64,000 bases of DNA from Neophaeotheca triangularis (lineage: Eukaryota): the NCBI GenBank assembly GCA_054600435.1, contig BAAIJX010000007.1:62001-126000 (forward strand), written 5' to 3'. Below the pieces are notes generated by a model. It searched no databases, had not been told where the DNA came from, and saw nothing but the letters and a program-made list of their open reading frames with translations. This document shows, piece by piece, positions 10,152 to 53,776 of the stretch. The translations under genes were made by a program, and so were the position numbers. Every line of letters starts with the position of its first letter. The stretch's first letter is position 1.

Positions 10152-10176
10152 TTCGACAGAGTTGGTCAATTACCAC

Positions 10177-10580
10177 AGCAAATTGTTTTGCATTCAAAAC
10201 ATGTCTTCAAAAGCGCAAACAACCTTTAGGTTTTTTGCGCAAGCTTAGATGAGGGTTAAAATCAGAAATAGCTTATATACTATCTTTTTAAAAGCTTAGA
10301 TTACGCCTCGGTGAAAAACCTATCTACTATTCAACATTCGTTAGATTCTATATAGGAGTTGCTATTTCCTTATCTTCTAGCTATGTTCCGTATATTTCTG
10401 TAGTTATTAAGTATAGATATAGTATAGTGTATACCGATACTACGTCGGGTCTCGCTCAAAACCGATATTAGAACCTTACATTTTATCTACCCTAATTTCT
10501 AGCATTGCCTCTCTTCTACCTCTCTTCCCCCGGCTCTTTATATTATTATAGCAAATTGTTTTGCATTCAAAACATGTCTT
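10177..10580 (+). repeat. 31-bp direct repeat AGCAAATTGTTTTGCATTCAAAACATGTCTT at 10177-10207 and 10550-10580
   Basis: Exact match of both copies; contains hairpin TGTTTTG-CATT-CAAAACA; the second copy supplies the probable ATG (10574) of the helicase gene. Confidence 0.93.
10296..10536 (-). repeat. Inverted, RIP-mutated copy (C) of the SDA1 3' end and downstream region
   Basis: 10405-10536 is the reverse complement of ~9744-9877 (last ~15 SDA1 codons plus 3' flank) with C>T/G>A changes; shorter mirrored fragments (TTAGATTACG, TTGCTATT.CCTT) extend to ~10296. Confidence 0.9.
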
Positions 10581-13500
10581 AAAATGTAGAGACAGCCTAG
10601 GCAGACAGTATGCGACTAAAGGCGCTAAGGCACTCTATAGCCCTAGGGGTTTAAGCACTGTCGCTTAGTAATACCCTTCCCCCCGAGTTATTAGATCCTA
10701 GGCGTTAAAGTAGTGTCGGTAGGTAAGGATCATGTAGCTACTTAGGCGTCGTCGAGTGTTACGTAGCCTTGACATATACCTACTTATAGTAAGTTAGTTG
10801 CTCTAATATAGACACCTATAACAATATAGCTCTAATAAGATAGCTAGAATACGGCGTAAGGATAGGGGAGCTGACCTACCTAGCACTAGTACTAAGCGGA
10901 ATATCGACTAAGTAGACCCTTAAGCAAAAGAAGAAGCTAAGTTTTCAGCATACCTTACTAAATAGAAGAAAGCTAAGCGAGACGACGGCTTTACTAGGAG
11001 GGCTAATCTTACGGAGGAGACTACCGGCTAGAGTGACCAAGAGCGCTTCGAAGCCGCTATACTAACTCTAGAGGATAAGAAGGCGAAGCGCGTAGCTAAG
11101 TTAAAGGAGAAAGGCGAGCTCGTTCTATGCCTACCGGACTACGGGGTTTACGTCCTTAAGAAGGACAGCTCTAGCGAGGGTATACTAGGCATCGCGGGTT
11201 ACCTTAACTGTCCTACGACGGCCGTAGTATGGTAGCGCTTCGTCGACGATCCGGCGGTAGAGGCGATCTTAAAGGGCCTACACGAGGAAAGCTTAGTAAG
11301 TCTACATCCGGTCCTCTAGGCTTTAAGCTCGCACATGGCGTATAACATGGCGCCGGTGTTATTCTTTAGATATTAAATGTAGGTACCTAGTAAAAGATCT
11401 GCTAGTTAGCGGATCTTCGCTATTTTTAGCCACAAGAAAACTGCCGATTAGCGAATCCTTTAATAGTCGTTTTAAAAGGATCTACTAGTCGGCATGTCTT
11501 TACTAGCTCTTCGTACTTCGAAGACTATCCGATAAAATCCCTACGACCGCGTCACATGTAGAGCTAGCGTAGGAGGATGCAACTATATACTGACTAATGC
11601 TATCTGTCGTAGAAGGCGAACGCCTACGGTATAGTGATTAAAGAAAAGGCCGGTAGCTTCGTGGCGCTAACGTTCGTGAAGACAGACTTCTTCGCTAACC
11701 TAAAGTAAGGCCGGTTCTAGGCTTATGACGTCGCTAGTGATACGAGCCCGCTATTAGACAGATACCCTGCTAGCTCGACGTTACGAATACACCTCTACTA
11801 GCTAAGGGCCGCCGTTAAAATGATTAAAGCGGTGCCTATCTCGTTTATAGGCGCGGCGGCAATAAAGGGCAGAAAGTATGTTAAAGGCCTAGACATTAAA
11901 GCGGAGGACCTACACCGTTTCATCGTCTACTTTACGAAGTTCTACATCCGTAAGGTAGTGGAAAAGAGCTACGGTAAGAAGGCGCGGACGGTCGCATTCG
12001 CTAACCTACCTATCTTCTACCTCCTAGGCGAGTAATAGGCTAATACGGATAAGTAAGCCGCGTAAAATCATTACGCATTCGACAATTTGTTTAACTAGAC
12101 TATTCCCTCCGAGCACCTACTACGTTAGTTCGGCGACCGCTATAGCGAAACAGAGGGCGGCGACGGTAAAGGTAATGGCGGTAGCGGCGACGATACCGAC
12201 TTCGAGGAAAGCCCTAGGCTAGGCGGCGCCGCACTACGTTAGAGTTTGCCGCATCTCGAAGGGAAGGACTTGTCTCGATTACTCGGTTTCTTCGCCGACG
12301 GGGTTAATTATCTTTACGGCTCGAGGGAGAGGGGCAACCGTTTCTTTATACCCCCGTTAGAAAGTGTGCGTTTGTAAAGCGGTACGGTAACAGAAACGGA
12401 AAAGGCTCGCGAGGCTTCGAACGCACTTACCTATAGCGAGAGGCTCGCCTTTAACTAGGAGGAGTTTGCTAAACTATAACAGCGCGCTAACACGTGCTCT
12501 ACGGTAGCGCCCGACTAGGAAGACGCCGTGAATACGCTAGGCCTAAAGGTCTAGGAGCTCGATGAAGGAGAAATCGATTTGCTGACGCGACAAAACTTTC
12601 GAGTATCCTACCGCGGGCTATAACTTATACTATAGTAACCGTAGTCGTCCGCGTATATATACCGTATAATTAACGGCCCCCTTAGAGCGTGTATTAACAC
12701 CGACGACATAGGACTCGGTAAGACTATATCGACGCTCGTTACCGTAGTGTAGCGGTCTATAGACGTTCACTCTAGCCTCTAAGGATACTAGAACAAATAC
12801 TAGAGCCTAGTCGAGAGAGTACGGCGCGAGTAGGTAGTCGATTCGTCACAATCCGCAGATAGGGAAGATAAGAGCGACCCGAGCGACGAGAGGCTTATTA
12901 GTATAGTAGGACTAGAAGGCGCCGCTACTAACCTAGGCTATAAGCCGACACATAAGCTAGTACTTATCGTAGTGCCCCCGTCTACACTTAGCGCTTAGAC
13001 ACATTATGCCGCAAGGTACTTTTAAAATCGAGAACAGCGTATAAACATCACTATACGCACGTTCTTCGGCGTTAGCGGCGTAAAAGCTACCTCCCTCGAG
13101 CGGTAGTTGTCCGTCGGCACTACGGCGAGCGAGCTCTAGAGTTATTACGCTAGCCTCGACCCTAGCGACGATACTACAAGTCGAACGTGTATCCTAACGA
13201 CTTTTCGAAGCTTCTCGAGCCGCTGTCTAGATGCTTAAAGATCGGGGTTGTTAGACGGAGACGTTATAATGGAAGATTCGCCTAACGAAGTCGTAGAGGA
13301 AGTCCTTAACAGCGACGAGGAAGGACAAGAGTATGACGACTTGCTCGAGACGTAAGCCTACGAGCCCGACGAGGACGACGCCGACGCCCTTTAGAAGGTG
13401 CAATTCTCTACGCTTAGAATAGCTGCGGACACGTTTTCCTTACTAGTCGTTAACGAGGCTTATTAGGTCAAGAACCGCGTAAGCCTATAGACCGCCGCTT

Positions 13501-15868
13501 TATACAAGCTAGAATGTCGCGCCACGATACTCTATACCGCTACGCCGTACATTAACTCCGTGTATAATATGTACGGACTACTACGGTTTATGTAGAAGGG
13601 TATCGAAGGTCGCTTTAGCGGCTATTCCGCCGAGAGGCCTAACCGCGCCGCTTACGTCGAGCTCCTTAACAGCCTAACGAACAAGTACCGTCGTAGTATG
13701 TTTATAGTCCCGCCGGAGCACCTAGACACCTATCTTATAGCTCTCGATCCCGAGAATTTCAAGTCGCTACTAGGCGCCGGCGTTAGCGCGGTCGACATAG
13801 ACGTGAGCCACGACATAGTACGCTTACCCATAATGCTCACTTGTCTCCGCCGCGTAATAGGTAACAAGTTATAGGTAGCCGGCCGTAGCATTAGACTAGG
13901 CGCGGACATCCCGCCCTTCGAGGTTATCGTTATAGAGCTCCGCTAGGGCGACGCGGAATCGTCGTTATACGGGGCGGCGTACGAGGCGTGCTTTAGGGGA
14001 TCTAGTAGCGGGCTAAAGCGATCGTACGAGGAAGAGGGTCGACGTGCTATAGGCAGGCGCCGTAGGCTATAGCACGCCGCATTTAACCCGGCTTCCGATT
14101 AAATGTACATACGAAACATCGAAATAGGACCCGACACGATTTAGAAGATTACGAAGTAAGGACTCGACAGGTTCTTACTCTACTATAGCTAGACTAAAGG
14201 CAACCTCCACTATCATTTACTAGAGTCACGTATTACAATAGCGCTTTATGTTATAGGCGACTCTTATAAGATGCAAGCCGTGTACGCCGAACTTCTCTAA
14301 GTAGTTATTAGGGAAGACCGCAAAATGCTCCTATATGCGGAGTGGCCATTAAACCTCGAGCTACTAGAGTTGTTACTTTACATACTCGAAATCGAACACC
14401 TTTCTATCCGAGCGGGCGTTAAGGCTAGTAAAAGGATAGAGGCAGAAAACGAGTACAATAGTAACCCCGTAGTCAAGGTCCTCGTCTACTCTTCTAGATC
14501 GGCCGTAGAGTCGCTTAATTTGCAAAAGGGCGGCCACTACATTATAGTAGTAGATGTCATCCTAATTATAACGCTTATGCAGATTATTAGGAGGGGGTTC
14601 CGTGTCGGCTAGTCTTACCCGCAGACTATTAAGCTACTTACGGTTAACGAGACCTACGACTAATACCTCTTATATAGATACGTCGCCAACTATAGCGCCT
14701 AGCTAGCTGCTATATCCACTATCGAATTACCTAAGGCTGCCGTTAAAAGAGCTTGCCGTTAAGCCGACGAGCGCGATAGGCGCGGGCACTAAGGGGAACC
14801 GTCGGATTACGCCGAATACCTTAACAAAGCCTTACGGGAAGCGTTCGTAGGAGGCCTCGTATGTTGTATGCTAGGTATACGTTCGAACCGCGCCGACGAT
14901 TAGGGTGACGTGCGTAACGTGCGTAAGAAAAACTTGCTTCTAGAAGAGCGCCTCTTCCGCCTAGTAATAGGCGGGCCGGTAGCCACCGAGCTACTCCGTT
15001 AAATTTAGGAGAACAATTCTACTAAGTCCGTAGAGCTAGGCGACACGGTGCCTACGTTCTAGGCTAGCGTTTTCTCCGCCGCCATAGTTATACGTAGGGC
15101 TAATAGAGAGTCGTTTTTAGAAGGCAGCTACGTTCGCGCCTTAATTACTACGGCCCGGGACATAGCGGCGACCCGTGAATTCGCCCTAAACGCCGTTAGC
15201 GCGACCGACTACCTCGTTACTACTAAAGGCTAGGTAGAGACACCGTCGCCTTATCTGTACACGGTAATTAACCGCCTAGCGGGCGCGGAACAGTCCGGTT
15301 TAGCGTCTAGCTTAGATAGTCTAAATGTAGGCGGACAAGACGAACTATAATACGAAGCCTCGCGTACGGAGGATAGGCTACGGGTAGAGGCTATATGCTA
15401 GAGCGCGCTAGGTAGGAATTCCCCCTACTAACGCCGCTAGACCGCGCTAACTATATATAGACGGTAACGAAGCGTTAGTAGACAGCCTAACGAGGCAGGA
15501 GGATGTTCATAGTACGTTTCCGTTAACGTCGTGAAGGTGGATATGTGTTTTAATGCTGATAGAAAGTAGTTCCTTAAAGCGTAGACGAGTTGACCGACGA
15601 TTAAAGTCGAGCCTACTAGGAATGCCTTAGCGTGGTGAAAAACTTTTATTCGAGGTAGGGTATAGTAGCATTTACTAGGCAGGAATTTAAGGGAGAGGTC
15701 GACGCTAGCAAACGGCGCGACACGGTCGAAGTCGGCATGGCATTCTTATAGGTCGAGAAGGAGATCCGCGAAGGCAAGGCACATATTCTAGACTAGGCCA
15801 AGTATTCTAGGCAAGAGAAAGCATTGTGGGAGAAATGCTAGCGAGCAATTGAAAGTCCGAAAGAGTGA
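10574..15868 (+). pseudogene. SNF2/SWI2-family (SF2) helicase-ATPase, RIP-inactivated
   Basis: Motif I CINTDDIGLGKT (~12690-12725), Ia LIVVPPSTL (~12960-12990), II LVVNEAY*VKN (=DEAHQVKN after RIP reversion, ~13443-13475), III TATP (~13535), HELICc with ESLNLQ and motif VI QIIRRGFRVG* (=QIIGRGFRVGQ, ~14580-14612); probable introns ~11379-11611 and ~15512-15561. Confidence 0.9.
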
Positions 15869-18800
15869 CGAACGAGAGGGGGTCGGATCGAGGTAGAAGT
15901 AGAGGTTACACTACGGAGAAACAAACTGTTAGCATCTTCGGCGGTTTATTAGAACAGACGAATCGGCTCTAGGTATGGCTGTTTAAAAGGTAGTAGAAGT
16001 ATTAGGTAGCCTTACTCATTAATATAACCATGGTTTATGTCCGTCTGTTTTAGCGTTAATAGATCCTAGCGGCTTTTCATGATGCAGTAGATAGCACGAG
16101 GCTAATGGTCGAGTCTTAGAAAACTTCGAGGTGTTAGTCGGGGAGAGGCGGGAAGAGTACCTTGAGTTAACGCCTCCCCGACCCCCTTTACTAAGCGTAC
16201 TTAGTACTCGTGTAACCTGCCTTGGCTATTACAAGGTTTCACGCTACTACCTTACATATAGGCAATAAGGGCATATATGAATATAAAGTAGGCAAGAAGC
16301 GCTTTTCTAGTATCTACTATACTATATCCGCCCTAATCGACCCGAAAAAAGTATACTACGTGTTGAATCCTATTAAACAAAGAGCTATGTCTAGCGCTAC
16401 CCTTAATACATTACCTTATAGTAAGTCTTTCGCCCCGTTTTGCCTACCGAGTCTCTAGGACCTAGCCGAACCTCGCCCTCTAGCTCGCTACTATCTAAGC
16501 CCGGCGTTACCTTGCCTCTACAGTTCCGCGCCCGTTAGCTGTACGTGAAAAGACTAGAAGCTATTAGAAGGAAGGGCATGATTAATCGGAGGCCGTGTTA
16601 TCTACGAAGATTAGACAAGGAATGTCGCTATAGCCGGCCGATATACCGCGAGAGAGGTACTTAAGAACAAGAGGACCTCCGTTAGGGCTGCATACTAGGC
16701 GCATAATGACAGTGGGTGTCGTCGTCCGTAGCAAGATGTAAGGTGCCGACTTCGATATTCCTGTTACTATTTACCGGTTTCTTAGTTAACGACCCTAGGC
16801 CTTAAAGTCTGCTACCTTTATCGCTTCTACCTCTACTAGGGGCATCTTCGCCTATAAGATCGACAATCCCCGTCTCGAGAGAGAGACCGTAAGGCTTTAG
16901 GCGAAGGTCGAATTCCGCCCACGATAGTAGCCGAAGAGTCCGTGTCTATCCGTAGTGTTAGCCTAAGGGTCTTTACCTATCTAAGAATGCCGTTCTACAT
17001 GCCTCTTATAGCTAGTAGGGTTTACTTAGTGCTTTGTAGGGGCGTAGTAATCTAGCTCTTTACTCTATTCCTACATTGATTTAAATCGCTAAGTTAAGGA
17101 GTGTTAGCGGCAACGAGTTCAAGAATGTCGACGTAAGAGGCGTTAACTACGATCGACAGAAGTCTTACTATTAGCTCTTGTGTTAGACATCCGCTAGAGG
17201 TGTTTCTAGCGCGCTTCCGATACAAATGCATATTGCTATAACACTATCTCCGAATTGCAGAAATCTTTTAGAAGCACGTTCGGACCTAGGTCGACTAAAA
17301 GAGTTTATAGCCCTCTAGGTACTACCTTATAAAAGCTTACTAACTACTATGCCATTTAGAGCACTACGTTTAAGCTTCCCGTAAACACAAGAGTGCTAGT
17401 TGTGCTGTCTCCCTCCTATACAATCGGAGTAAGTTCATAGTATCTATCTAGATATAAGGCTTAAAAGCGGCCTAGTACTAATCGACAAGGCCGCATTGCT
17501 ATTAGCAATGCCCTTCGACGAAACGTGGGTTTAGAGCGCACTAATGCTCGACGAGCGAGGCGAATTGTTTAAGTACGGCATGAAGTTAAAAGTCGTCCTA
17601 CGGCTCGGGGATAACTAGGTAGCTAGTATTACTTTCGAGGTTTTAGAAGAGGTTAAAGTACCCTTACACGGTATATAGGAGTACGAAGCTCCGGAGAGTA
17701 ACGCGGCCACGGAACGAAGCGACGGTACTACTCGATCTAATAACGGTCTTAACGAGTGCTTCTAGGGTAAAAGGGGGGGCGGGGGGGGTCCGATTTTTAG
17801 GAAAGAGGCTCGTATGTTTGCAAGGGATATGATAGGTCGGCTTAGGCCTTAAGGAGGACGCCGTTATAAGGACCGAGGCTAGCAATAGCACACTGCCTAG
17901 GATTTAGATAGGGTTTAGGTGATGCTACCATTTCTATACTCGTTACGTTTGATTCTCCGCCGGCTAGGTACTATGTAATAAGTTCAAGCCCGGTTTACGT
18001 TAGGTAGCAAAACTTAAGAAGCTAAAACGCAGTAGTGTCTTGCTCTAACACGCGCGTTTATTAGATATACTAGAAATTGTCTAGATACTATCTCGTTACT
18101 ACCCGCTATCGCTAGTTTAGCTACTATAGTCATAGTCTTTAATAGTTATACGGTTCGGATCCACTAAACCACCTTAGCTTCTATCACACTAATACTAAGC
18201 GGGTATTAGTACGGCTCGCCTTTAATAAGAGTGCTATAAGCCTAAGCGTACGAGTAGCGCCCTAACGTCTACATGATTACGAAAATCAAAAGCCCCGGTT
18301 ACTCTCATTAGTTCCTCCTTGTCGCTACTAATCGAGCCCTTAGTACATCTTAATATCTACTATAACAGCTCCTATCGGTAGGAACTTGCCGAGGGTTCTA
18401 TCGAGCTATTTCCGCTATGTTAATGGTTAGCTAGCTAAACGGCGTACTGCTCCTTCGTACCCGGTTTTTCAAGCGCAGTAAATTATCCCCCGTAATGCCG
18501 ATCTTAGAAGCACGGCGCGATCGCTACGTATAGCCTCTAGAGCGCCTAATTGTACGACTAAGAACGTAGACGCTAGCGGCGTTAATACTAGTGTCTAGCG
18601 TAGCGTCGAGTATTCCTAACCTGTAGGGCACTAGGAGAGCTCGATACCGGAAGTCCTAGCTAAAGCCGATACGGAATAGGACGCGAAAGTGCTTACTTGC
18701 GCCTTCGAGGAGTCGTTCTTTGACTATATCGCTATCGAGAATGTAGAGGTATTACGGCGAGGAGTTAGTGACTACGATTGCTTATAAGGATAAATCTAGC

Positions 18801-19496
18801 CGAATAGTGAAGTGGTAACTACTAATGTCTAAGGCCTAAGGTATTACCATTTTAGCTACTCGAGAAGATCTAATCGATACCACTTACCGCCCGAGGAGAT
18901 AGCTCAAGTTAAGTTAAGTAATAGCCGTTCTAGAACGTTTATAGCATTCGAGATGCTTAGGGAGAGATTAGGGCATGAACCGAGCCTACCTATTCGTTCT
19001 TGCTTTAAGAGCTACGTGGAACTCTTGCGACTACGGTAGGATATAAAGGAAGGGCATTATTACTAAGAAGATATAGAAGAAGGCTTTGCGGTTTATCGTA
19101 GCGAGCTATGTTAGCGCATATATAAGTATTAAAGAACAAGATACGTGGGCGGACTACGGCTATACTGTAAATAGGTTGACTCGCCGCTATAGCTAAGTTC
19201 CCTAACCGTAAACTATGATTTAGCTAACTATTCGAGACAAAGTAAGACCGCGGACATGCGAGCGCTACGACTACTAGTCTACTCAGGCTTTTACTTGTCT
19301 AATGCTTACTGTAGACTTCGAGTAGCTCTAAGCTATTCGGGTTAAAGGTAGTGTCGTAGTTTTGCACGGCGCTTCGTTTACACCTAAAGCCACCGAACTA
19401 TAGCCAAAAGAGGTCAAGACAATCCGCTTCGTGGACTAAGCAAGTTAAGACCTTGTCGAGGTTTCGGTTTTACACAACAAATACATGTCCCTTTCT

Positions 19497-20560
19497 TTAT
19501 GCGCCCGGTATCATGTCCGAGTCTTCCGTCTCCCTAAGTAAGGTTTCATCGTCTTGAAATTCGGCCCTCTTCCTTTTCGTTTTCCGCGCAACTCGCTTCT
19601 CTCTAAATCTGCTAGAGGCCCCGGCAAGACGTGATTGCCCTAAGGATGTTCTAGGTTCCGTCGCTTCTATAGAAGGTCGAGGGAAAATGCTATTCAGATC
19701 ATCCCCGTGACATCCCGCTAGTAGGCCTATTAATACCCGGCGAATGATGTCGTAGTAGAGATCCTCTAGGGTTTCTATAGTAAGGGACTTAAGCCGACGA
19801 GCAGCCGAACTAGCGGGATTCTCTTTGTCGTCGACGTGCGGGCCGTCTAGTAGAGGCACTAGATTTCGAAATTTTCCTCGACTCGAGCCCCCTAAAAGCT
19901 AGTATAACTCGGATGTTGTAGTTAGAACGAAGAGCTTTTTGGTAGCGTATAAGACTATCGAATCGGAGTTCGTTCGGAAGACGGGGACATTGCCGTAGGG
20001 GGCGAATTGTATACCGAAAAGCGGTGTACTAGCCGAAGGAGGGTTCATTATAGCGCTACTTTTAAGATATCTACTACGCTAAATGTCTTGCTAAAACGCC
20101 GTTCTCGAAGCGTGCGACCACTTGTACTTAGCGAAGTAGATAGGTGTATACTCTAGCCTTTATCGATGTTAGTAAGACCGCCTCGTAGAGCTTCATATTA
20201 TAGGAACTTACCCCGGAGGACAAGGGCGCCGGGCTTCTAGTACCCTAGAATTAACACCCTACTTACGCTAGGTAAAGCGCGAAGGTTAGTGGAAGAAGAA
20301 GCCGTCCCTATAGTGTGTAGCTAGCTTATTTAGAGCTATGACAAGCAATTCATTCTACGGTAGCGTACGCCTAATGTAGCCGACATCGATGTTATCTACC
20401 CGAAGTTATAGGTGTTTAGTCCTTATATCTCTCTAAAAGAACTTTAGGCTTGCTACGATGTTACGTAGTAAGTAAGTGGACTAATTAACGTCTACAGTGT
20501 CCGTTCTAGGGCTAGAGGTTAACCCCGACATATCGTCGATATAGCAATACTCCTATGATT
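19497..20560 (-). pseudogene. Hypothetical protein, decayed; C-terminal ~120 codons still open
   Basis: ORF 19497-19859 with basic NLS-like KRVARKTKRKR; frame continues upstream through RIP-type stops. No family recognised. Confidence 0.4.
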
Positions 20561-22285
20561 AGAGCGAGGTAGGAGGAAGACCTTATAGTGTTTAAAAGCA
20601 CGACACGTTCAAGACACTATCTGTGAAAGTACCGACACCGTGTCACAATGTGTTTCGAATGGCGGCGCGACTCCTCTATAGCACGAAACAAGACAAGGAC
20701 TAACTAGTTTACTCACTCGCATAATACATAAAAGCATCGTCCTTAGACTGTCGAGTCCGACTCGAGGCAAAGACCCTCTCCCCTTTGCCGCTTTACTAAT
20801 AGACGACTTAAACGTAGTTATTAGTTTTATGTCTATGTTATAGCACTAACAACTAACATTCGGAGCCGTGTACGACTAGCGCTCGAAATGGCAAAGCGCA
20901 TGCGAAAGGTTTTAGTTAGCATTAGGCGGCCCTCCGGCAATCTATTAACATTATGTCCTCTTATTCTCTTAGCTCCTAGGGCAACTAGACCTCTTCGACC
21001 TTATAAGGCTCGTTATACTAGAACTTCGAAGCGCCGGAACTCCCTAGTCGACCTCTTAACTATAGAGCTAAGTACTTAACACCGTCTCCGACATCCGTCA
21101 TTAGGCTCTACGAATCGAGTTAAGAACGCAAGCCGACTTCGATTTACCGCTTTATCTTAGCGAGAAACGTGTATAGCTAGAGGCGGAGATTCACCGCGCT
21201 AGAGTTCTACTCTATTAAGGCGGGAGCTACACTTTACAAGAGTAGAGGGAGATAAGCGAATGGCTAGTAAAGCGTCCGCTAGGCATCGCCTAGCCGATAG
21301 TTAGCGAAGAAACCTCGAGTCCTACTAGAAGGCCTTCGAACGAGGGGAGCGGCAATTAAGGAACTCCCCCGGAGTAAGAGGCTACATCCTCGCGCCTCTT
21401 ATTCTTACGACTGCCCTTAAACGCGATATAATAGTTAGGGCGGATAGCTAGGTAGTAGGAGAACGATTGTCTGTAGAACATCTAAGGGAAGTTAATTTAA
21501 GTAGTGTACCTGAAGGGGACTTGTGTATAAGAACACGTAGAACTAGTTTGCGAGATAGGTCGATTCGTGGAGGCTTATAGGCTAAACCGGGTAGGAGGGT
21601 AGTATCGGCTAAATTAGTTAGGTAGCGGAAGGGTAACCGTCGAGGTGCTTTTACAGCAAGTTCTTAGTAGGCAATATACGTGGTTAGTTAAAGGAATTTA
21701 TGCACGTGCCTTCCTACTAGGTCATGTGCAGATCACGTGATTCTTCTACTCTTGCCTTATGGCTTTATAAATGCCTTAGGCATGAAATTCCCGCCGGACG
21801 GATTCATCTTCTAACGTACAGCTCGGTAGATAGCTCTATCCTATTTAACACTAGATCTACGCCTATAGAACTATAGCCTAGGAATTTCCGCATTACCGGC
21901 TGTAAGAATCCAAGTAAAAAGACCTTACGGTAGGAAAACGCTACATGATATACTTCCCGTGTCTATCTAGTAGGACGAGTATAACAGGACTCTAGTATCT
22001 ACTATGTCTTTAGTCCTAAGTCACGAATCACTTATAAACTTCCCTTGTCCTATTCCGCAAATATCTAGCTTATAAGTTAAGGCCGTTAGGTAGGAGACAA
22101 GTACAAAGGGTTTATTAGTCTTCGTACGATTAGCGCAGTTCTTTCCGTAAAGTTACATTAACAAAATCGAGACCTCCGCCCCTTCTAACCTCCCTAGGCC
22201 CTCGCCCTCGTACTAAGTGAACTGTAGTCGAGATTATACACCCCTCCTAAATCATACTCCGCCCGCCCTTAGACCTACGCTTGCC

Positions 22286-22639
22286 TTAGTCTCCGTCATC
22301 GCTACTGTCGACAACTTTAGTAACCGGTTCGTCCGGAGCATCTTTTTCGTAGTCGAAAATCTCCTTAATGTCGCCTAAGGAATCCTGAAAAGCCGCTAGG
22401 AAGCCCGCTACTCGCTTAATATTAGAGGTATCTAGATATTGCATATCGGCTTTTCGCTTAAGAACCAAATTGCTTAGAACTGTCTTAAGTTTACCGATCG
22501 TTTCGTAGGCTTCTTCGGTTTTAGCGGCGAGTTCTTTAAGTGCTACTAGCATGTCCCGGCAAAGCTTTCTATTAGCCGCTCGATAGGACGCTAGAGGTAG
22601 CTAGAGCGTAGGCGGCCTAGTAGAGGTAGTTTCTTGCAT
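22286..22639 (-). pseudogene. Small helical hypothetical protein
   Basis: ATG at 22639, one TAG, then the open 88-aa ORF MLVALKELAAKTEEAYE... with an acidic tail. Confidence 0.45.
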
Positions 22640-23139
22640 TGTTTGCGTGCGGTAAGGCGTCGTTAGTCGTAGCGGTATATGTAAGGGTGTGTGCTATAGG
22701 GCCTTTATGTGTAGGTAGGTGTACGAGGGTGTAGTAGGGCGTGTAAGTATGTTTAAGTGTGTATGTTGTTAATCCTAGACCCGTGATGAAGTTAAAGAAG
22801 AATGCGATCGTAGCAAAAGGTCGTTTAGATACACATTATTATATAAGGAATCGTTAGGGAAAATCAGGTGCGCTACTAGCGCCTCTATCTAGGTTCTATT
22901 TACGACCTATAAGACATGTAGCTTAGTTATAGAATACAACCGGCCTTTAAAGCAAGATAGGGAAATCAAGCGAAACAGTGTAGTACGGTTACTTGCTACG
23001 CTAAAGTTAGATCTTGTCTAAAACAAGATAGATAGAGCTTTATAGGAAAGGAGAGAAGAAGCTATAACCGTACGAGGTTTCATTCAATTAACGTGCGCTA
23101 ACTTAATGCGTGTTGTTACAATTTGTAAGACCGAATTAA

Positions 23140-24252
23140 AGTAAATGTAAGTCCTCCTGTCAGGCAAACCTCGTCTCTATTAGCGCCTACTAGTCTATTC
23201 CTCTAACTCTTTTAGTTATTCCCGTACTCCTAATCCTCGCCTAGTGTCTACGTCGCTAGGTAAGTCTACATCTTACGGCGACACAGTATTATCTCCTTCT
23301 ATGACTATCGTACTACCCGTCCGGAGCCGCTACGAAGCCTCGGCGATCGTACTATAGACGCCTATAAAGCTAAGGTAGAACGAGGAGCGATCGTAGACCG
23401 GCTTAGCCTAGGGGATAGACCTGTCTAAGGCTAGGAAGGAGACCGGATCGTAGCGCTCGAGAGGTAGTAGATACGGCTCCTAGGCGTTATCGCGGTAAAC
23501 GTTATCGGTTACCCTAAAGCACCCCTCGTTATAGTAAATATCATTGTAGTTACGCGGTACTTGTTAAAGGTAAGGGTAATTAAGCAAGAACTAGTTAAAG
23601 GAAAGCTAGTCCTTAGTCGAGACGATAGTACCGTCGGAGCGTTATACGGCGTAATCGAATCGGATCTATAGGCGCGTGATTCTCCTATCTACTTAAGCCT
23701 AGATTTTCGAGCTTTCGTATTACGTAGAGGGATGCTTACTTAAAGTGTATTAAGAGGCTCTAGCGGTAAAGGCTTACACGAGTAATAGGCCGTCTTCCCT
23801 TCTACTAGCGGCTCCGATTTTGCACACTAGCTAAGTAGTAAAGGCCTCGTCTACATGTCGGTCGGCAAATTCGGGTAGATAGCGGAAGCCGAAGGTAGTG
23901 GCTAGGAAAGGCGGACGCTAGTGTTCGGCGACGAGCAATGCACCTTTACGATCGAGACCGTTCTTTACGCGAATATGTTAGCCCGTAGGATAAGATCTAG
24001 GACATTAATAATACTTGCCTCGAAAACCGTCCTCTCGTACTATAGCTGCCCTATTGACCTAGAACGTTTAACCGACCAGATTATATCCTTCTTCACAAAA
24101 CCTCCGTCGATATATAGCTTTAACAGCAAGTCCGCCAAAATGGTTCTACCGGCGACGATAACTTAGCGCTAAGCTAGCTCCTCGACTATTCCTAGAGGCG
24201 GTAGATACCTAACCGCGATGCCTATCATCTCGTAGTCGTTAAGTGCGTTCAT
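23140..24252 (-). pseudogene. Hypothetical protein, RIP-inactivated
   Basis: MNALNDYEMIGIAVRYLPP... long protein-like frame broken only by TAG/TAA, with one probable intron or frame change. Confidence 0.4.
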
Positions 24253-26559
24253 GCTTGTAGTACGGCCTATAAAGAGAGGAGGCGGGGATCTTACAGTTAA
24301 ACAAAAGCATGGAAATAAAGAACTAGGGGCTAGAAGACGGGATGCGGTAGCCTCGCAGTTAAATAGAAGAACGGAAACGAACGGCTAGGGGCCGGAGGCG
24401 TGTGAATGTTAACTAGTAAGGTTACTAGAGTGCTAGCGTAAGCATGTCTTACTCGGGTATATTAGGGTGGACTAAAGACTTAAGAAAAGAAATGAACGGA
24501 TAGATTTCTTGGTCTATTAGGCGGTGTTTAGCACGTGAAAGTAGAGAGCTGTTATCGGTTAGTAGGAATATAGTAAATGCGACTCGATTGCTCACTATCA
24601 TGTTATGCGACAACATGTCCTCTAGCCGGAGTCTCTCTCTATATTGTAGCGACGCTAACTCTATCCGTTCTCCTTAATACGTTCATCCTACTAGCCTTCG
24701 AGCAAGCTAGCGTCTACGCCGTAACGCGGACATAGGACACCCTAGAATTGCCTAGGCCCTAGTAGCTCATGCCTAGCGAAAGGGTAGGTGTATAGGTATT
24801 TAAGCTAATAGTGTCTGTGTAAGGTTACCGAGCATTCCGAGCATTACTAGGGGTTCTCGCCGATGTCGTAGAAATGTAAGCAAACTATATATTAAAGATA
24901 CAGTTCCGCATTGTCGCGCGCATGTATGTAGTCGTTTCTCTTAGTATTAGCGTGCTAGCTTTATACCACTCGGTTAGGTTACTATAACTCATGTCGGTAG
25001 CGTAATAGAGGGGGTGAAATCGACCTCGCTAGCGTTAGGACATCGCCTCCTACACGTGTTTCCCGAGGTATATTATATAGATTGTGATAGAGCGGTAGGG
25101 TATTATAGGGGCTACGAAGGTGCTCGAGGGTACGCGCTACGGCGTTATAGTCGGCGCCGTTTTCGAATAGGCCTATTCGGCGGGGTAGAGTCCTCTATCG
25201 AGATAACGTTAGATTTGCGCTAGATATATAATAGCAAAGCGAGGGAGCTTACCGATAAGATTCGCTAGTAATCTATAACATCGGTAAGGAGGCGCTAAGC
25301 GAAATCTTGTGTTGCTGTCCTAGCGTAGTCTTTATAGACAAGTAAGTTTGCGATGATCTCGACTATAGTAAGGGTATCGCGTATCGCGAGCAGATGTGAC
25401 CTTAGCGAGTTAAGACGGTTTAGGACCTAGAGGTAGGGATCTGCGGTGAGGTAGAAGCGATAACTTTAGTAAACGTACGTCCGAATCGCGAGACGGTTTA
25501 GCCAAGTGATCGCATAGCTAATATCGTCCTCTATACCTAGGTAAGGGTAGGAAGTCAAATCCTTCTAAGGCAGACATCGTGCTATAAATCGTGCGCTATA
25601 TGTCTTAGACACTTACTTTTTTAGGGGCTCTCGGTTAGTCTTTTATTAGACATTTGAACACCACTAGGGAGCAGGAAAAGGCGGTCTACATGTAATAACT
25701 AAGCGTTACGGTACACGCAACGGTTTAGTTCTAGCTTTCGGGGCGCTAGGGATCTCCTAACCGGGAACGTAAGAGACATCGTGTTCCCGTATATACGTCC
25801 GTAGTATGAAGAGGTAGAGGTGTTTAGGTAGGAAGGATGAAACGAAGTGTGAAGGACGTGATTTTCTATAAGCTAGTATCTACTAGAAAGCTTACTAAGT
25901 GTATAGAAGTGCACGTGCCTTCTAAGCTAGGTCATGTGATATTCACGTGTCTGTCCTACTCTTATTACACACGTACTATAACGTTAGGTAATGTCTTAAT
26001 AGAGTTGATTACCTAACCTAGTGGAAGTCGCGCGCTAGTACCTAGGTAGCTAGACCGAACCGTAATTTTCTAACCGTCTGTACTAGGAGGCCACTATTAT
26101 TAGGACCCCGGATTCGCTATTAACATGTTCAGATAACTTGAGCACCTAGGAAATGTAATGCCTACGTACAATGAGTAGAAGGTATGTAGAGCTCCGATAG
26201 TAGGTATTACCTACCGAATAATCGATACACTAACTTAGGGCACGATAGGTTTACCGTTTAGAGCGCTGTCTACTAAATACTAAAGGGTTCGGGTAAACGC
26301 AGCGATCCGCGTCGCTAAGAATGTGACGATAGCTTATCTCCTAATAGGGTCGGGCGCCGTATCTAAGCCTTCTACGAGCGGAACGGGCTAATGAAACGTG
26401 TAAGTTATTAATCTTAGCAGTATTGTATTCACCGGGTCCCGACGACACCTTATAGCGAAGGGCCTATTACCAAATTCTTGTGAGACTTTATCTAATAGCA
26501 TACAAACACCCGTCTTAACACTAACTAATCCTCGTATAGGAAACAAAACACTTTAAGCG

Positions 26560-35500: not shown

Positions 35501-36600
35501 GCGACAAATTCAGACCTCCCGGGCTTATTATCCTTTAGCCGAAACTCGAAGGATACAACTCCGTTATTATAGCGCGTAAATAGTATTAGGAAACGCAGGC
35601 GTAGAGCGGGCATAGCGGCGCTAAGTGAGATTAGTAGACGGGAATTTTAGGGTTTCATTCTTAGATACATACCTGCTCTAGTGCTAGCCTTACGTCAGGG
35701 CGCTAACCCGTAGACGTTATATAGGCGTGTAATTTCCGTACTCGTACTTCTATAGGGCTTGCCATTCGATATCCGCGAAGAATATTAGGAGATCTACTAC
35801 TACATCCGCAGCCCTCCCTGTTCCCCTCTCGTAAAGGCTTTATAGTGGCTAGCTATATTACACATGTCCTATGTCCTGCTTTTAGCGCCTTTAATTAAAT
35901 AGTCTATAGGAGGCCATGCCTACTTACCCTTTAGCCTAGGCGTCGAGCGAATGTAATCGTTAAGGGCTAAGCTAACAAGCCCTTCGAGGGACGCCCTAGC
36001 GCGATTTCTCCTAGTGAATCCTTAGACGAACGTGCTAAAGAAGGTTTCGAGTAGCCACTAGAGGTCCGCGAAGGAAGTCTCGGCTCCAAGAGCGGGGAGT
36101 ATCGCAATGCCCGAATCGTTACTCGCCCTTATCAAAACTATAGCTTGTACTACTATAAGTAGGATCTTAGGGTTCTTCTTCTTCTTCTTCTTCTTCTTCT
36201 TTCCCTAACTTACACTCCCTAGCTCTACCTTAGGGTCCTACTTATCGGAAATGTTATCTACTACGTCTCTATCGTTCGCTAGGCCTCTACTAGTCTTCTC
36301 GTTAGACTACTCTCCTTTACCTACTATAGTTAGCTTCGTAGACGTGCTTAGGAGAGTTAGTTGTTCTAGTATGTAGCGGAAAGTATGTAATACTAATCGA
36401 CCGCTAGAGTATACTATTTTAAAGACACTATAGTAATGTTTGTAGCCTTCTTTCTTACGCGTTTAAGTCTATTATGTCTTAAGGAGATAAAGACCTGCCG
36501 TTCGATCTTAGCTACCTACATCTTCTAGGTCAGCTTGATTTCACTTATACTACCCTCCGTTTTAAGGGGGCCGCGCGGTCGCGTCTAATGGTTACTATAC
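32540..36600 (-). pseudogene. Large multi-exon protein with PD-(D/E)XK-like nuclease motifs (paralog 1)
   Basis: Long exon ~34860-32738 with LGYLAKDEIVWML, LGYRVMQNPL*PL*CDFLLAIPRCDEALRVKVK (D…ExK after RIP reversion, ~34010-33914) and GYGYSNHVVVKYS*SHEA; upstream exons include a poly-Lys run encoded by (AAG)n. Confidence 0.55.
36173..36200. repeat. (TTC)n microsatellite
   Basis: About 9 TTC units; reads as poly-Lys on the minus strand. Confidence 0.9.
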
Positions 36601-38819
36601 TAGGTGCCTATATATACATCATCTAAGATGCTCCTACGTGTGTAACTAACTAGGTAATGAGTGCAGGTAGTAATAGAGGTATACTACCTAGAAGGTACCT
36701 AGATACCTAAACCGACGTACTTATTAGAATTAGGTACCGACGTTACCGAGGCATACCTTATGTAGAGCCCCCGTCACTACCCGCGTGTCGTAACACGCTA
36801 AACACCTCATGCGTGAATACTCGGTCACGTGCTTCACGACTCGGCTAGGGCCGATTGTTTTTTGGCTTTAAGAAAACTGCTGACTAGCAAATCTTGTCAG
36901 CAATTTTAAAAGGATCTGCTAGTCGGCATGTCTTTAGAGTGAGCGCGTACGGTAGAATGGAAGGCTCTATAGGACCTCTATAGCCACTCATGTAATAAAG
37001 AATTAGCCGTAACCCGTGTTGCCGTGGTAGTAGCTACCTATAGTCGTCTACCGTAGAAGATTAGCTATTACCGCTCGATGTAGTATAGTGTATGTACTAG
37101 TTAATCGTTGTCCTTATAGACAGACGTCGCCTAGTAGTAAGATATGGCTTTTCGAAGGACCTTAAAGTACGGAACTACGTACCGACGGCTATAACCGAGA
37201 CTACTACTACCTCCGTGGTACGGCTAGAGAAAGGGAAGTAAAAAGGAATCGCGCTACGTTCTATTAAAACCCCCTAGGCAGCTTACAACCTTGCATAATA
37301 ATAACCGTAGACCCGCCGACCCCTTTAAACGCAACCCGCCTTATCTATAGAGGAAATACACTATATTGCCCGAACCCGACTATTGCAGCCTATAGGCTAG
37401 ATATCTCGAACCCCTACACCCCTACCCGGGCCTACTCTCACATGTTTCCACGGCGCTAAATCACCCGCAAGTACTAAACAAATAGCCTAACTGTAACGAG
37501 CCACACTAATTTGATTATGGCAATAATCGTTACTATCTAGTTATAAGTAAACCCTAGCAATACTACTACAATCGTTATGACAAGGAAGGTCGTAAGCTCC
37601 TCGTTAATAGCTAGGGAAGCCGTAGAATAGAAGAAGACCAAAAAGTGAAGAATAGATTACCCGATAAGCTTCCCGAACAGCACGGTCAAAGAACTAGTTT
37701 TGATGAGTTTTCTAATAGTTAGGATATGCTTTAAGGCGAAAAGCTTGATCGACATAGCGTTTATAGCATGCTAAAAGAGGTAGGCGGCCTAGGTAGCAAA
37801 GTCCTACAGTTTAAGGTCGAATACGTAGATGTAACCGCAGCCTAAGCCGGTAATGGCTACGATAGAGAGGATAGCGAAGGACAATATCTTGAAGGGGTTG
37901 ATTAGAAGATGCTAGGACAAAGTTTGCTGATTTAATCGGTTTAATTAGGTCGGAGGCCTTAAGGGTTCCCTAGTACGAGGCGGTTTTGCGTAGGTAGGAA
38001 GTTTGTAAGTTAGAAGTAAGCTGTCGACAGGCTATGTTAAACGGAGTTAAGTGCTTAGGATTAATGGTATAAGGCAATTGTGTGTAGGAAGATCTTGATT
38101 ATAGCGGGCTTAAGTTTATAGGCGTCCGGTAACATCCTATATAGCTATAAATCATGTACATAAGGAGGGCCCGGGACAAGGTCGCAATACACTAGAACCG
38201 TTTCGCTAAGCCGAGCCAGACTTCCCCTTAGATTCTTGTCTAGAACAGGAACAGTGCATTTTCGTAGGCGAGACACTTAAGAAAGACACAAGGCTAAATC
38301 TAGCCGCCTAGAGAGTTTCCGTGCTAGCTCTACACGAGGAACCCTCCCCGACTTCGAGACGATCTTAGGCTGCTATGGTTTAAGGAAGACTTTTACGTCG
38401 ATACATGTTCTATAAGTGCGGTATACTCTCTACTTTATTGTAAGTTAGTAAGTGACAAGCCATTATACGAACCTATCCTATCACTCCTAGCTAGTCCCCC
38501 TAATTAAGAGCTAGCTATAGTAAGATTATTCTACTTATAATAGTTACATCTTGTAAACGGCTTAGTGTGCAAGAAGCGGTAGACTGAGCACCATCCGTCA
38601 TTTTGCTTACCTTCGTAGGAAGGCTTCCTAGCTATTAACCGAGAGAAGTCTCACTACCTATTAGCCCTAGTTTTAAGCCTGCCGCTTCCTAGGGGCTAGT
38701 ACTCGCGTTCTTACTACGCTACTAAGAGGTATTGTCAGAACATGAAGTTCACTTAATTACGATCCCTCCCTAATCGTTTAACATTCGGACGCTCGTAACA
38801 CGTCGACCCTCGTCCGAAA

Positions 38820-45560: not shown

Positions 45561-45759
45561 ATATAATAGGTTAAAGGGCGGGCGGGCGCTAGGGCGGACG
45601 GGGCGGGTACTACTATAAAAGGCCGTAAGAGTAGTGTAAATGGCATCCGATAACGAAGAGCATCTATCGCCGTTATACATAATCCCTCCCTACTACTATA
45701 AGAGAACTTCTAAACCCCTACTACGACTAACCTCGATAAAGGAAGTTTACGACGACAGC

Positions 45760-50350: not shown

Positions 50351-50969
50351 CAATACACTCTATAGTCTACTAGCCTATTCCTATCTACTACATAATCCTT
50401 CTCCGCAATTCCCCGCCCTAGCTATACTAAGTACCTTAGTGCCTACGGGCTACTGCCGATGTGCCGCCTTCTTAGTTCTAGTTATCGTGGCCTAACTCTA
50501 GGCTCTTAGGGATAGTCATTGCCTTACTACTATTACTAGACATAGCTCCCCCCTCTTAGTAGATCTCTAGTACGTTGTCGACGAACGTGTTAACCTTGTC
50601 GGTAACCTCTACGGAAGCGTTAATAGTGTAGTCCTCGGCGAGGCGAACGACGATACGGAGTTTTAGGCTGTACTCGACCTAGCGGCCTCGCCGATCCTAA
50701 TGCGGCGAGACAAACACCTATCGCTCGAACGTCGCTATCGTAAGGAGTAGTAAAGGAGTCTTTAGCGCCTAAGTTCTTAAAGTTAGCAATACGTTCTTAG
50801 CGGGTATTTGCTACCCTCTTACACTTACCGAGTAAACCTAAGCGTAAGTACCGGTTTTTAGTTAGGAGGAGCGGTAGCCGTAGAGTCTATCCTGTTTTCT
50901 TAGAATTAGGCCGGGTTCAATTCTCTCTCCTTACGATTAATAATAACGAGACAAACTAACCTGACACGA

Positions 50970-53408
50970 TATAGATCCGATTAAATTTGCCACATAAATA
51001 ATCGCTTATACGGAGTAGTAGACAAGGAAGCAACTAGCGGCGAGGACCTCCCTATATTTGTACATAGGATAGCCTCTTAATAGTGTCGTTTGACCGCCTC
51101 TACTTAGCGACTAGCTATCTAAGATTGTCTCACTTTATAACTTGCCTATTAGACGATATAACGCCTTCGATGTAAGCTTGCGTCCGAATCTACCGTGCTT
51201 TAACTTATAGGTCTTACTTCCGTTCGGCAAAATGATACTGTCGGCGATCATTTCGTTAACGAGTTTTGCTACCCCGGGGTTAGAAGACTAGGCTTCCTTC
51301 CCTTATAGTAAGTCATTTACTCCTGATTTAGAATCCGCGTTAGAAATGAATGTCTTTTTTCAGCTTTCTAGGATCTTGCCGCATATAGCCGGAAAACTCT
51401 AACAGTTGTTTAAGCTATATATGAGGACGTAGTAGCGTAGTGTCTATGTCGCTATTTGTAGGAATAGCTATTCCATTACTTACGAGTATCTATAACGCCC
51501 TCTTCCTAAGTTAAAAGCTCCTCCCGCCTCCCCTTCGACAAGATAGCTAGGGACTTGAATTAGTTAGCACGGATAGTAGGGGTTTTTCGCGGCATCCTTT
51601 ACGAAGGAGACATCTTCGCGGCTCTTCACTAGTCACCTTACATAGTGCGATCGTTCGAGTTTGCCCTTACTAATGGCGTAGTAGACTACGATCACGAATT
51701 TGACGTAACGGAAAGCTATATAGACAGATTCTAGGCTATACACACAAGACGTATCGCGATAACCGAACGGCACACGTTATTACTCTTCGACGTAAAAGCA
51801 TCTCTTAGGGGCGCTACCGGCGATTAACACCGGATTACTACCGCTACTTAGGTAAAGGTAGTAGCTTTCTTCGTTAGACTCTACGTAGCTAATCTAACGT
51901 ACGTGGAGCTAATACCTAATTTCCGCCAGGATACTAGAGTAGCCCTCCGGATGTCACTAATAGAGGCTATAGTTACGCTCGTAGTGAATATTACAAGACA
52001 ATGTAGGCTACTTCTAAGTTCGTATAGCGGACTTAACTAATGCATAGCACCTTACCGTATGCCGCTAGCCCTCCTCTTAACAGCTATTAGTAGAGTAAGG
52101 GACGTGGCTCGGAACGGCGGGGTCTATATTAACCCGTAGACTAAAGTAGCATTTCCTAATTGGCATCCGGAGACGACAAAAGCCTTAGATTGGCTTCGGC
52201 CTTACGAGTAGTTAGCTTAATTCACGGCGAGTAGAGCTGTGTTAGAAATTTATCGCGTAGTTACATTCTTCTATGCCCTAAGTAGACAGGGCTTTCTAAA
52301 GGTCGACTTTATCGGCATATAGCCCTACCTTGCCGATCTTAAGGTCATTCTTAAGGATCGGCAAGTGTTTATATAGTACAAGATCGACTCACAATTACGT
52401 TCGGAAAGCTCGACGCCGTCGAGCGTTCTAGTCGCCCGACAGTTAAAAGGACGGATCAAGTATCATTTTTGCGCCTTCGATCGCTTCGACTTTTACCTAC
52501 TCGAATTCACATTTTCTAAGCATTAAGAGATATTGTTCTTCCTAGAAAGAATTTTGCTAGATGAAATGTACAGCACACTAGAAGAGCGTGCTAATTTCGA
52601 AATAGACCGCTTTCTCCCCTTTCGAATAGAAGTAGACGAAGAAGACAGGTAGATCTCTAGTATTCTACATATTATCGAAAACGACCCTTATCCTCGAGCA
52701 GTCGGCGAGCGACTACCCCGGATCAAGACGCCTTCTCCGTAAGACGTAGAGGCAACACAAGCAGTCTTACTATTAAACGAGATAGCTCTTAGACACCGGA
52801 TCTTCTTCTATAGTATTATGTGTCAATACGCCTAAAACCGCTCCGGCCTACTTATTATGCTTACGAGAGTATACCCATTCGGCGATTTCGGCTTTTACCG
52901 CTATACTTAGACTATATAAGAGGCATAAGATTACCTCGAGTACCTCCGCCCCCCCCGGACGGCTTATTAACTGCTAGTAGAGACGGAAATCCTCCCTATC
53001 TACTTTTTCACCTACCGTAGCGAAGCTTTCTTCTAAGGGCTAGAGGTAAGACCTGCCGACTTTCGCCGCTTAGATTCGTGTAGCGAAGCCCGTCTAACTG
53101 TTTAGGACCTATTTGGCGGTAACGCTACCCCCTCTACCGTCTAACTTTTCCTCATTCCTTTAGGTAACATCTTCCCGACGTCTATATAGCGCGAAATTTT
53201 CCTAAAGGCCTTAACTAGCACTAGTTGCTTCTAGGCGCGGACCCCTTGTCTTTTAGCACTACTTCGAATAGGATTATAGGCGTCTAAGTACTATTTACCT
53301 AGAGTAGATCGAGGGCCTTACATCTACGACACACGGAGCGAGCTACTATGGGGGCCTCCTTAGCGAATTTTGCAGCGCTTTATAGGACTTAAGCTTTTTA
53401 AGCACCCC
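50970..53408 (+). pseudogene. Protein with tandem PD-(D/E)XK-like nuclease motifs (paralog 2), running into the right repeat
   Basis: Single ~680-codon frame from ~51364: GILYEGDIFAALH (~51591), LLFDVKASL (~51780), *PYLADLKVIL…FI*YKID (~52320-52388), RFDFYLLEF, YPFGDFGFYRYT*T (~52872); two short upstream introns. Confidence 0.6.
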
Positions 53409-53776
53409 GTCGGTTTTAAGCGAGACCCGACGTAGTATCGGCATACACTGTGCTATGTGTATACTTAACTATTGTAGGAACATATCGAGTAGATGAAGAA
53501 GTAATTAAATTTGTAAGAAGAATAGATTTAGCGCCTTATTAACAAAAAACTGAATTGAAGGACATCATTTTATAGGTCTAGAAAAGGAATAGCAATGGTT
53601 CCGTACATGCCGTAATCTAACAAATTCTAGTTGTATCATATCCAACGTTCACTTAACACATTTTGGTTAGAACATAATCAATTTTGAATTTTGACACATA
53701 TGTGTGCGTGCGCAAAATTAAGCTTTGCGCCAAGCCCTACTTTGTAGGGGTAATTGACCAGATTACTGTAGGGGTG
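53409..53776 (+). repeat. Right copy (B) of the flanking direct repeat
   Basis: Aligns with 9815-10151; has ~35 extra nt near 53623-53660, several transversions, and RIP-type changes in its proximal part. Confidence 0.95.

Follow-up and report, generated by a model that had tools for sequence, protein, structure and literature searches.

The window analysed here is a 64,000-nucleotide (nt) stretch of Neophaeotheca triangularis DNA (GenBank assembly GCA_054600435.1, contig BAAIJX010000007.1, positions 62,001 to 126,000 of the forward strand), and coordinates are positions within it unless a locus is named. Between an SDA1 gene and a tRNA-Arg(TCG) gene it holds an island of 43.6 kb, heavily altered by repeat-induced point mutation (RIP), that opens with a pseudogene of an SNF2-family ATPase and closes with a pseudogene of a putative nuclease family. 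We consider this island as a candidate integrative element. The features of its two ends and its flanks are as follows, with RE and LE for right and left end, TIR for terminal inverted repeat, E for expect value and the labels of individual repeats in brackets.

7378-9786, plus strand: SDA1 gene, left flank, intact and without RIP (Pfam SDA1_HEAT PF08158 3.5e-151, SDA1_dom 1.4e-38, SDA1_C 1.6e-19)
9815-10151, plus strand: RE1, orphan right end (direct repeats D1/D5/D2), with 31 nuclease-like codons, ~240 nt of downstream sequence and tRNA nt 1-5
10152-10225, plus strand: LE1, first left end (D4 and I17/I18), with a TIR-like arm at 10163-10182
10374-10531, minus strand: inverted partial copy of ~9743-9907 (I1, 142 nt, 81% complementary)
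10532-10598, plus strand: LE2, second left end (D4: 10542-10598 is 82% identical to 10169-10225)
10882-11301 and 11613-15317, plus strand: SNF2-family ATPase pseudogene, in two frames (Pfam PF00176, E 2.8e-10)
51483-53504, plus strand: PD-(D/E)XK-like, putative nuclease-family pseudogene, the last gene (10 homologues), its last 31 codons within RE2
53409-53776, plus strand: RE2, right end, with a TIR-like arm at 53741-53760, terminating with tRNA nt 1-5
53772-53875, plus strand: tRNA-Arg(TCG) with intron (Rfam RF00005, 43.9 bits)
54545-56257, minus strand: PP2C phosphatase gene, right flank, without RIP (Pfam PP2C 9.2e-37)

The GC content of the island is 0.39-0.52 per kb (10-54 kb), against 0.48-0.60 in the flanks, and the RIP indices separate the two in the same way: TpA/ApT is 1.90 and (CpA+TpG)/(ApC+GpT) is 0.48 for 10152-53408, with all 2-kb bins similar, compared with 0.73-0.75 and 1.15-1.23 in the flanks. 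RIP-affected DNA has a TpA/ApT above ~0.89 and a (CpA+TpG)/(ApC+GpT) below ~1.03; the island passes both thresholds and the flanks do not. The RIP block is sharply bounded, running from ~10.15 to 53.4 kb. The whole island contains a single stop-to-stop open reading frame (ORF) of at least 120 amino acids (aa), so every gene in it is a pseudogene. RIP transitions leave RNY (purine/pyrimidine) periodicity intact, and a coding-like signal of this kind extends across ~13,400 island codons. GC content, RIP indices, RNY signal and ORF count together uphold the first-pass annotation, made from the sequence by eye, which had described a gene-dense RIP-altered island between SDA1 and tRNA-Arg(TCG). Since RIP targets duplicated DNA, its uniform presence up to sharp edges implies that the whole block was once present twice, as had also been proposed; repeats internal to the island are few.

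The ends of the block are formed by a direct repeat, 9815-10151 and 53409-53776 (337 and 368 bp), whose copies align with 302 matches, 31 substitutions (18 transitions and 13 transversions) and 39 gap columns, and in both of which CpA-to-TpA and TpG-to-TpA changes are present. The repeat ends at 10151 and 53776, which confirms the earlier observation that it stops 5 nt inside the tRNA. Homology of the nuclease-like gene to its relatives extends to 53462-53483, so the repeat begins with the final 31 codons (93 nt) of that gene. In the left copy this coding part starts 25 nt past the SDA1 stop, runs without stops from 9815 to 9907, is closed by a stop codon at 9908-9910 and translates as VGFERNPTQYRHTLCYMHTQLLQEHIEQIKK; the right copy, VGFKRDPT*YRHTLCYVYT*LL*EHIE*MKK, reads as the same peptide with four in-frame RIP stops, at each of which the left copy has Q. 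Because the left copy carries the 3' end of the nuclease-like gene, we regard it as an orphan right end of an element (RE1), and the ~340-bp repeat is not a target-site duplication: it is a second copy of the element right end, with the 3' end of the last gene inside it.

RE1 is joined directly to LE1 at 10152. The second left end lies ~380 bp beyond LE1 and directly before the SNF2 gene, and is the more RIP-mutated of the two; between them sits an inverted scrap that takes in the final ~45 nt of SDA1 coding sequence, a spacer and the first part of RE1. A 20-nt inverted pair is also shared by LE1 and the right end, its arms lying 11 and 16 nt from the respective boundaries; of 5000 random island pairs, 5 score as high. 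Two right ends and two left ends with an RE/LE junction point to tandem or repeated integration, and the inverted scrap between the left ends would be a later rearrangement.

The last gene aligns with a relative, P0004, at 34% identity over 661 aa (tblastn, 51588-53462). A profile search placed it in a family of 374 clusters at E up to 1e-3, 299 of them at 1e-10 or better, whose proteins have ~700 aa and a conserved C-terminal half with no recognised fold. No Pfam domain was found above the cut-off in the 15 members scanned, and a PDB sequence search with the family profile gave no match. In an alignment of 45 sequences, D59, K98 and Q116 are invariant (45/45) and D96 is conserved in at least 90%, giving a D...DxK...Q pattern that contains the D...(D/E)xK signature of the PD-(D/E)XK superfamily; the window copy reads ...TNGVVD...LLFDVKA..., and the invariant columns include no conserved cysteine cluster. 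A 360-aa member was modelled with a predicted local distance difference test score (pLDDT) of 81.6 and a predicted template modelling score of 0.80, replacing a first model (pLDDT 48.7) that had returned weak RecU and Hjc rows. The exhaustive structure aligner VIA placed the homing endonuclease I-Ssp6803I first (Z 6.3, 130 residues, root-mean-square deviation 4.5), followed by Hjc (Z 5.8, 5.3 and 5.2), NhoI (5.2) and RecU (5.2), and its top 39 rows are mostly restriction endonucleases, Holliday junction resolvases or homing endonuclease, judged by entry titles. With Foldseek no match reached E 1e-3; PD-(D/E)XK enzymes head its list, I-Ssp6803I at E 0.016 and then SPARDA and Hjc. I-Ssp6803I, Hjc and RecU thus resemble the nuclease-like core in fold (Z 6.3 and 5.2-5.8) and in the D...DxK...Q pattern, while the fungal proteins differ in their length of ~700 aa and extra conserved C-terminal half, and the similarity is weak (best Foldseek E 0.016). 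The I-Ssp6803I gene lies in the intron of a tRNA gene. The consistent fold theme and the motif provide moderate support for the first-pass assignment of the last gene as PD-(D/E)XK-like, and we treat it as a putative nuclease.

A scan of metagenome contigs with the nuclease-like alignment yielded 14 loci, 10 of them distinct (L005=L006, L010=L011, L012=L013=L014), with which the island was compared in six frames (tblastn). This revealed further pseudogenes shared with them:

18740-18958, minus strand: FHA-like, weak match (tblastn 0.007)
19671-20141, minus strand: B2 pseudogene (tblastn 2.3e-10)
20277-20468, minus strand: B1 pseudogene (tblastn 1.8e-7)
21150-21278, plus strand: possible F-like remnant, weak (tblastn with F of L008, E 0.10 in an island-only database)
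32737-34602, minus strand: gene C pseudogene (tblastn 6e-15, 6e-7 and 1.8e-8), homologue of a 652-aa ORF, L007:5179-7134(-)
35941-36123, minus strand: gene G remnant (tblastn E 9e-5), homologue of L007:8521-8862(-)

The gene orders, with strands in brackets, are:

window: FHA-like(-), B2(-), B1(-), F-like(+), C(-), G(-), nuclease-like(+)
L007: B1(-), F(+), C(-), G(-), nuclease-like(+)
L005/L006 and L008: F(-), B1, B2, FHA-like, nuclease-like (+)
L012-14: B1, B2, nuclease-like, FHA inverted

Order and orientation in the window agree with L007, two gaps holding ~11 and ~15 kb of additional DNA. L005 and L008 have the same B1-B2-FHA order as the window, and the F-like remnant is divergent from B1, in a position and on a strand that agree with L005, L007 and L008. 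In L001, too, the nuclease-like gene has G upstream of it. No family is recognisable for B1, B2, C, F or G. Gene C has no Pfam match, PDB sequence searches with B1, B2 and C were empty and a homologue search with 18699-20423(-) found none. Judged from these sequence comparisons, the genes that accompany the nuclease-like gene elsewhere are B1, B2, FHA-like, F, C and G, and not SNF2.

The SNF2 pseudogene has 54 stops in 12303-15677; motif I is retained as GLGKT and motif II, DEAH, is mutated to NEAY. Two intact proteins, of 1520 and 1623 aa, share 36-37% identity with it (E 3e-232 against P0002, with 37% tblastn identity over 1301 aa, and E 2.2e-217 against P0003), and one of them is a hypothetical protein of Vermiconidia calcicola. 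The intact homologues combine a PF00176 N lobe with a PF00271 Helicase_C lobe, and their nearest solved relatives are ISWI/SNF2h-type remodellers (1e-10). The first gene is therefore an SNF2 ATPase, as annotated on first pass; its start, which had been placed ~420 bp from the left end, is revised, as detectable homology begins at 10882, ~730 bp from 10152. Residues 1-480 of P0002 and P0003 form a conserved N-terminal region without a Pfam family (...LP.Y.V....AGYLNCP...W.RF), also legible in the window at 10882-11301. No SNF2 relatives were found within the available flanks of any of the 14 nuclease-like loci, and an SNF2 alignment searched against the metagenome contigs gave no relatives. The proposal that SNF2 belongs to the core machinery is thus not supported, given its absence from all related loci including the smallest unit, in L005, and the best reading is that it is an accessory or cargo gene. 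Viral contigs held no relatives of either the SNF2 gene or the nuclease-like family, and a giant-virus origin therefore has no support.

For known mobility domains, 79 translated segments of the island, picked by low stop density or RNY phase and with stops written as X (21,752 residues, ~1/4 of six-frame space), were scanned with Pfam. One of the 79 matched, with SNF2-rel_dom at E 2.8e-10. No DUF3435, DDE, reverse transcriptase (RT), integrase or Helitron domain was found in these segments, with RIP lowering the sensitivity of the scan, which accords with the first reading by eye that had recognised no DUF3435, DDE or RT motif; the minus-strand frame at the right end likewise had no Pfam match. 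The 77 neighbouring ORFs of the related loci contained no DUF3435 and no tyrosine or serine integrase. An interpretation of the end repeats as long terminal repeats was rejected: inspection by eye found no TG...CA, primer-binding site or polypurine tract, and RT was absent from the scanned segments.

The tRNA-Arg gene is the sole tRNA-like match in 9500-54500 (E up to 5). Read by eye, it has the anticodon TCG and an intron of ~32 nt, which is probably why ARAGORN did not detect the tRNA in the window. Four of the seven pairs in its acceptor stem (GGGTGGT/GCTGCTC) are G.U, as would be expected of four C-to-T changes in an all-G-C stem. A tRNA-Arg gene recurs in L005, where a B1-B2-FHA-nuclease-like unit of ~5.0 kb lies between a tRNA (977-1113, Rfam 37.5 bits) and a 33-nt copy of the tRNA 3' end (6124-6156, 32/33 identical, 97%) followed by a T-run; the same right-hand copy is present in L006. 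Over its first 36 nt the L005 tRNA shows three differences from the window tRNA, and the two have identical anticodon loops. Integration into a tRNA gene classically leaves this pattern, with an entire tRNA at one border and a repeated tRNA end at the opposite border. Such att-type flanking spans 33 nt at 97% in L005/L006, and only 5 nt of the tRNA are repeated in the window. The sequence after the L005 tRNA copy resembles LE1 (4 of 4000 random windows score as high) and LE2 (12 of 4000). The L005 tRNA-Arg also contains ~49 extra nt (1036-1084) between ...ACCAAAGG and the 3' part, and CAAAGG is found at three places in this locus: where the tRNA 5' part ends, at copy 1 (in the form CACAGG) and again at copy 2; these occurrences could be a 6-7-nt target duplication or reflect a second event.

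Other sequencing runs bear on the left junction. In the source run, X1, Logan contigs cross it at 10122-10206 and 10178-10579; they come from the same sample and are not independent support. In X2, a run with the same organism label whose flank is ~1.5% different, one contig extends over SDA1 and 61 nt into the orphan fragment before diverging from the window at 9875, and another joins 10095 to 10327 on opposite strands. As X2 carries the start of the orphan fragment, the fragment predates the split of the two samples, and the X2 arrangement differs from that of the window at the left junction. The 30-nt loose end of X2 matched nowhere in the window when up to 7 errors were allowed. Over 10370-25000, X2 contigs (at least 80% identity) cover only 12516-12553 and 21793-21870, and no contig joins across the island; such missing cover says nothing about an empty site. 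The second of these stretches, ~78 bp, recurs on other contigs of X1 and X2 and resembles a small dispersed repeat. A 33-nt direct repeat, 97% identical, is also found within the heavily mutated island (11470-11502 and 36904-36936), and one X1 contig bridges it (joint 11502 to 9815). A third run with the same label, X3, gave patchy SDA1 matches with ~15-20% differences, from which it follows that the organism label spans quite different genomes.

We tentatively interpret the island as a dead, RIP-inactivated integrative element of an undescribed fungal family associated with tRNA-Arg(UCG), with SNF2 as an accessory, and rate this reading at a little under an even chance. The element would extend from 10152 or 10532 to 53776 (43.6 kb). 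Its backbone would consist of the PD-(D/E)XK-type nuclease-like protein of ~700 aa together with B1, B2, FHA-like, F, C and G, with the SNF2 ATPase and ~25 kb of other pseudogenes as accessory or cargo genes. The right end of the element, comprising the nuclease-like 3' end and ~270 nt, would abut the tRNA, and the second RE joined to a second LE on the SDA1 side would be the scar left by an earlier or tandem copy that subsequently lost most of its length and was rearranged. The predicted nuclease may cut at or in the tRNA-Arg gene, host recombination or repair would install the element, and the tRNA gene would persist through the tRNA sequence that the element carries along. Two whole-element copies would once have been present in one nucleus, with RIP destroying this one.

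Several observations weigh against this interpretation. The co-occurrence beside tRNAs that the first-pass annotation had set as a check is seen for the nuclease-like gene at tRNA-Arg in only one of the 10 distinct loci (L005/L006) and for SNF2 in none; L007 has only a tRNA-Thr 9.4 kb away, and the other eight distinct loci have no tRNA at E up to 1 and no tRNA fragments. The right ends of the window and L005 share only a 9-mer, a marginal resemblance (72 of 4000 random windows reach the score), and two of the window matches, FHA-like (E 0.007) and F-like (E 0.10), are weak. The VIA Z-scores for the nuclease-like model are all below 8, a range that the aligner calls common. The 13 transversions in 333 aligned sites imply that the repeat copies are old, or of different sources. 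No second copy of 10.5-25 kb (at least 80% identity) was found among the source-run contigs, and no empty SDA1-tRNA-Arg site was seen. Ordinary genes (ArfGap, NIPA, SDR, JmjC, HeH and FHA) lie near L006, L007, L010 and L012. Finally, the adjacency of F and B1 is kept in L005, L007 and L008, and F stands outside the tRNA-bounded unit in L005, which is as compatible with a conserved host cluster as with a mobile unit; conserved non-mobile synteny had been named at the outset as a finding that speaks against an element, and mobility is accordingly unproven.

The last two points lead to the strongest rival, which we regard as rather unlikely: the nuclease-like gene, B1, B2, FHA, F, C and G could form a conserved host gene cluster, for example for DNA repair or genome defence, that lies at tRNA-Arg by chance and was exposed to RIP in this strain by a large segmental duplication, with the end repeats and the inverted scrap as by-products and no self-mobility. 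Several lineages do keep order and orientation, the F-B1 pair included, at protein identities of only 25-40%; several loci have ordinary genes next to the cluster, in L010 a nuclease-like gene stands alone between ArfGap and NIPA, and the scanned segments hold no transposase. Against a host cluster stand RIP edges that coincide with element-type ends (the orphan RE joined to LE, and the TIR-like pair), the duplicated tRNA 3' end that flanks the L005/L006 unit, the same tRNA isoacceptor in the window and L005/L006, and window flanks, SDA1 and PP2C, that are unlike those of any other locus.

A decayed Starship, with its captain deleted or mutated beyond recognition and SNF2 and the rest as cargo, is quite improbable. 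Starships are described as cargo elements of tens of kb with a DUF3435 captain as first gene (PMC11162782, PMC9156397), for which one account gives direct repeats of at most 6-16 bp and 5S rDNA or AT-rich sites as targets (PMC11162782). The island is Starship-like in being tens of kb long, cargo-rich, RIP-prone and possessed of defined ends in a filamentous ascomycete; its 43.6 kb, cargo-like content and RIP are typical as those sources describe the group (PMC11162782, PMC9156397), and the 5S rDNA targeted by some Starships is, like tRNA, a multicopy small RNA gene (PMC11162782). The Pfam scan, moreover, reached only ~1/4 of six-frame space. Nevertheless, the end genes are SNF2 and nuclease-like, with no DUF3435 first gene at either end, and none of the 79 segments matched DUF3435 although the RIP-mutated SNF2 was still detected at 2.8e-10. 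The backbone also recurs elsewhere without DUF3435 among the 77 neighbouring ORFs, and the repeat here is 337/368 bp of element sequence, including a coding part, at a tRNA-Arg site, in contrast to the short repeats and the targets reported for Starships (PMC11162782).

That the island is an assembly artefact, or an AT-rich cluster of ordinary transposons and gene fragments that are unrelated to one another and have no identity as a unit, is highly improbable: the left junction is a mosaic of direct copy, inverted copy and second left end and most of the pseudogenes have no recognisable family, but the scanned segments gave no RT, integrase or DDE match, internal repeats are few, the backbone is collinear with L007 and Logan contigs of the source run, from the same sample and hence not independent, cross the left junction.

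An integrative element tied to tRNA-Arg has partial parallels among known systems. Dada transposons are described as 4.7-11 kb long, with a DDE transposase of ~1400 aa that has CCCC and CCHC zinc fingers, as targeting U6, U1 and tRNA genes and as producing a target duplication of 6-7 bp (PMC3706591). Set against that description, the island shares the tie to a specific small RNA gene and the sub-terminal inverted repeats, and the CAAAGG(T) shared by the L005 junctions has the length of a Dada target duplication. It differs in its 43.6 kb, in a nuclease-like family without a conserved cysteine cluster and in the lack of a DDE domain in the scanned segments; the window junctions share only tRNA nt 1-5, embedded in the ~340-bp repeat, and show no 6-7-bp duplication. 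Prokaryotic tRNA islands, integrative and conjugative elements and prophages are resembled by L005/L006, with a full tRNA plus a 33-nt copy of its 3' end and tRNA sequence supplied by the element, and by the window in its tandem-type right-end/left-end junctions. Unlike them, the island lies in a eukaryotic nuclear genome and has no tyrosine or serine integrase in the segments scanned, and the tRNA part shared in the window is nt 1-5 only, the long repeat being element DNA.

A broader version of the element interpretation seems doubtful to us. It would posit that filamentous ascomycetes harbour a new superfamily of eukaryotic integrative elements with cargo, from ~5 kb (B1-B2-FHA-nuclease) to more than 40 kb, in which a PD-(D/E)XK nuclease replaces the tyrosine recombinase or DDE transposase, and which home to tRNA-Arg(UCG), rebuild the tRNA with carried sequence and pile up in tandem; the window would then hold a RIP-killed giant member with an acquired SNF2. 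A search of open-access papers found none on a fungal element of this kind. To our knowledge, Starships, defined by the DUF3435 captain, are the only established giant cargo-mobilizing elements of fungi. If the element interpretation is correct, the island would represent a second, mechanistically different family, nuclease-based, tRNA-tied and target-preserving as in bacterial genomic islands, which would widen the known routes of fungal gene mobility and horizontal transfer and offer a natural site-specific nuclease module to study. Should the genes instead form a host cluster, they would still define an uncharacterized family of 374 clusters with a PD-(D/E)XK core and conserved partners.

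Some smaller repeats lie outside the RIP block. Between the tRNA and the PP2C gene is a nested inverted repeat (54259-54524), with 61-nt arms at 54288-54348 and 54434-54494 (90% complementary) and outer 25-nt arms at 54259-54283 and 54500-54524 (96% complementary). In L007, five tandem 21-nt units lie within an ORF with a HeH domain (18763-18888), and three 52-nt units (21373-21528) lie just upstream of the tRNA-Thr(CGT).

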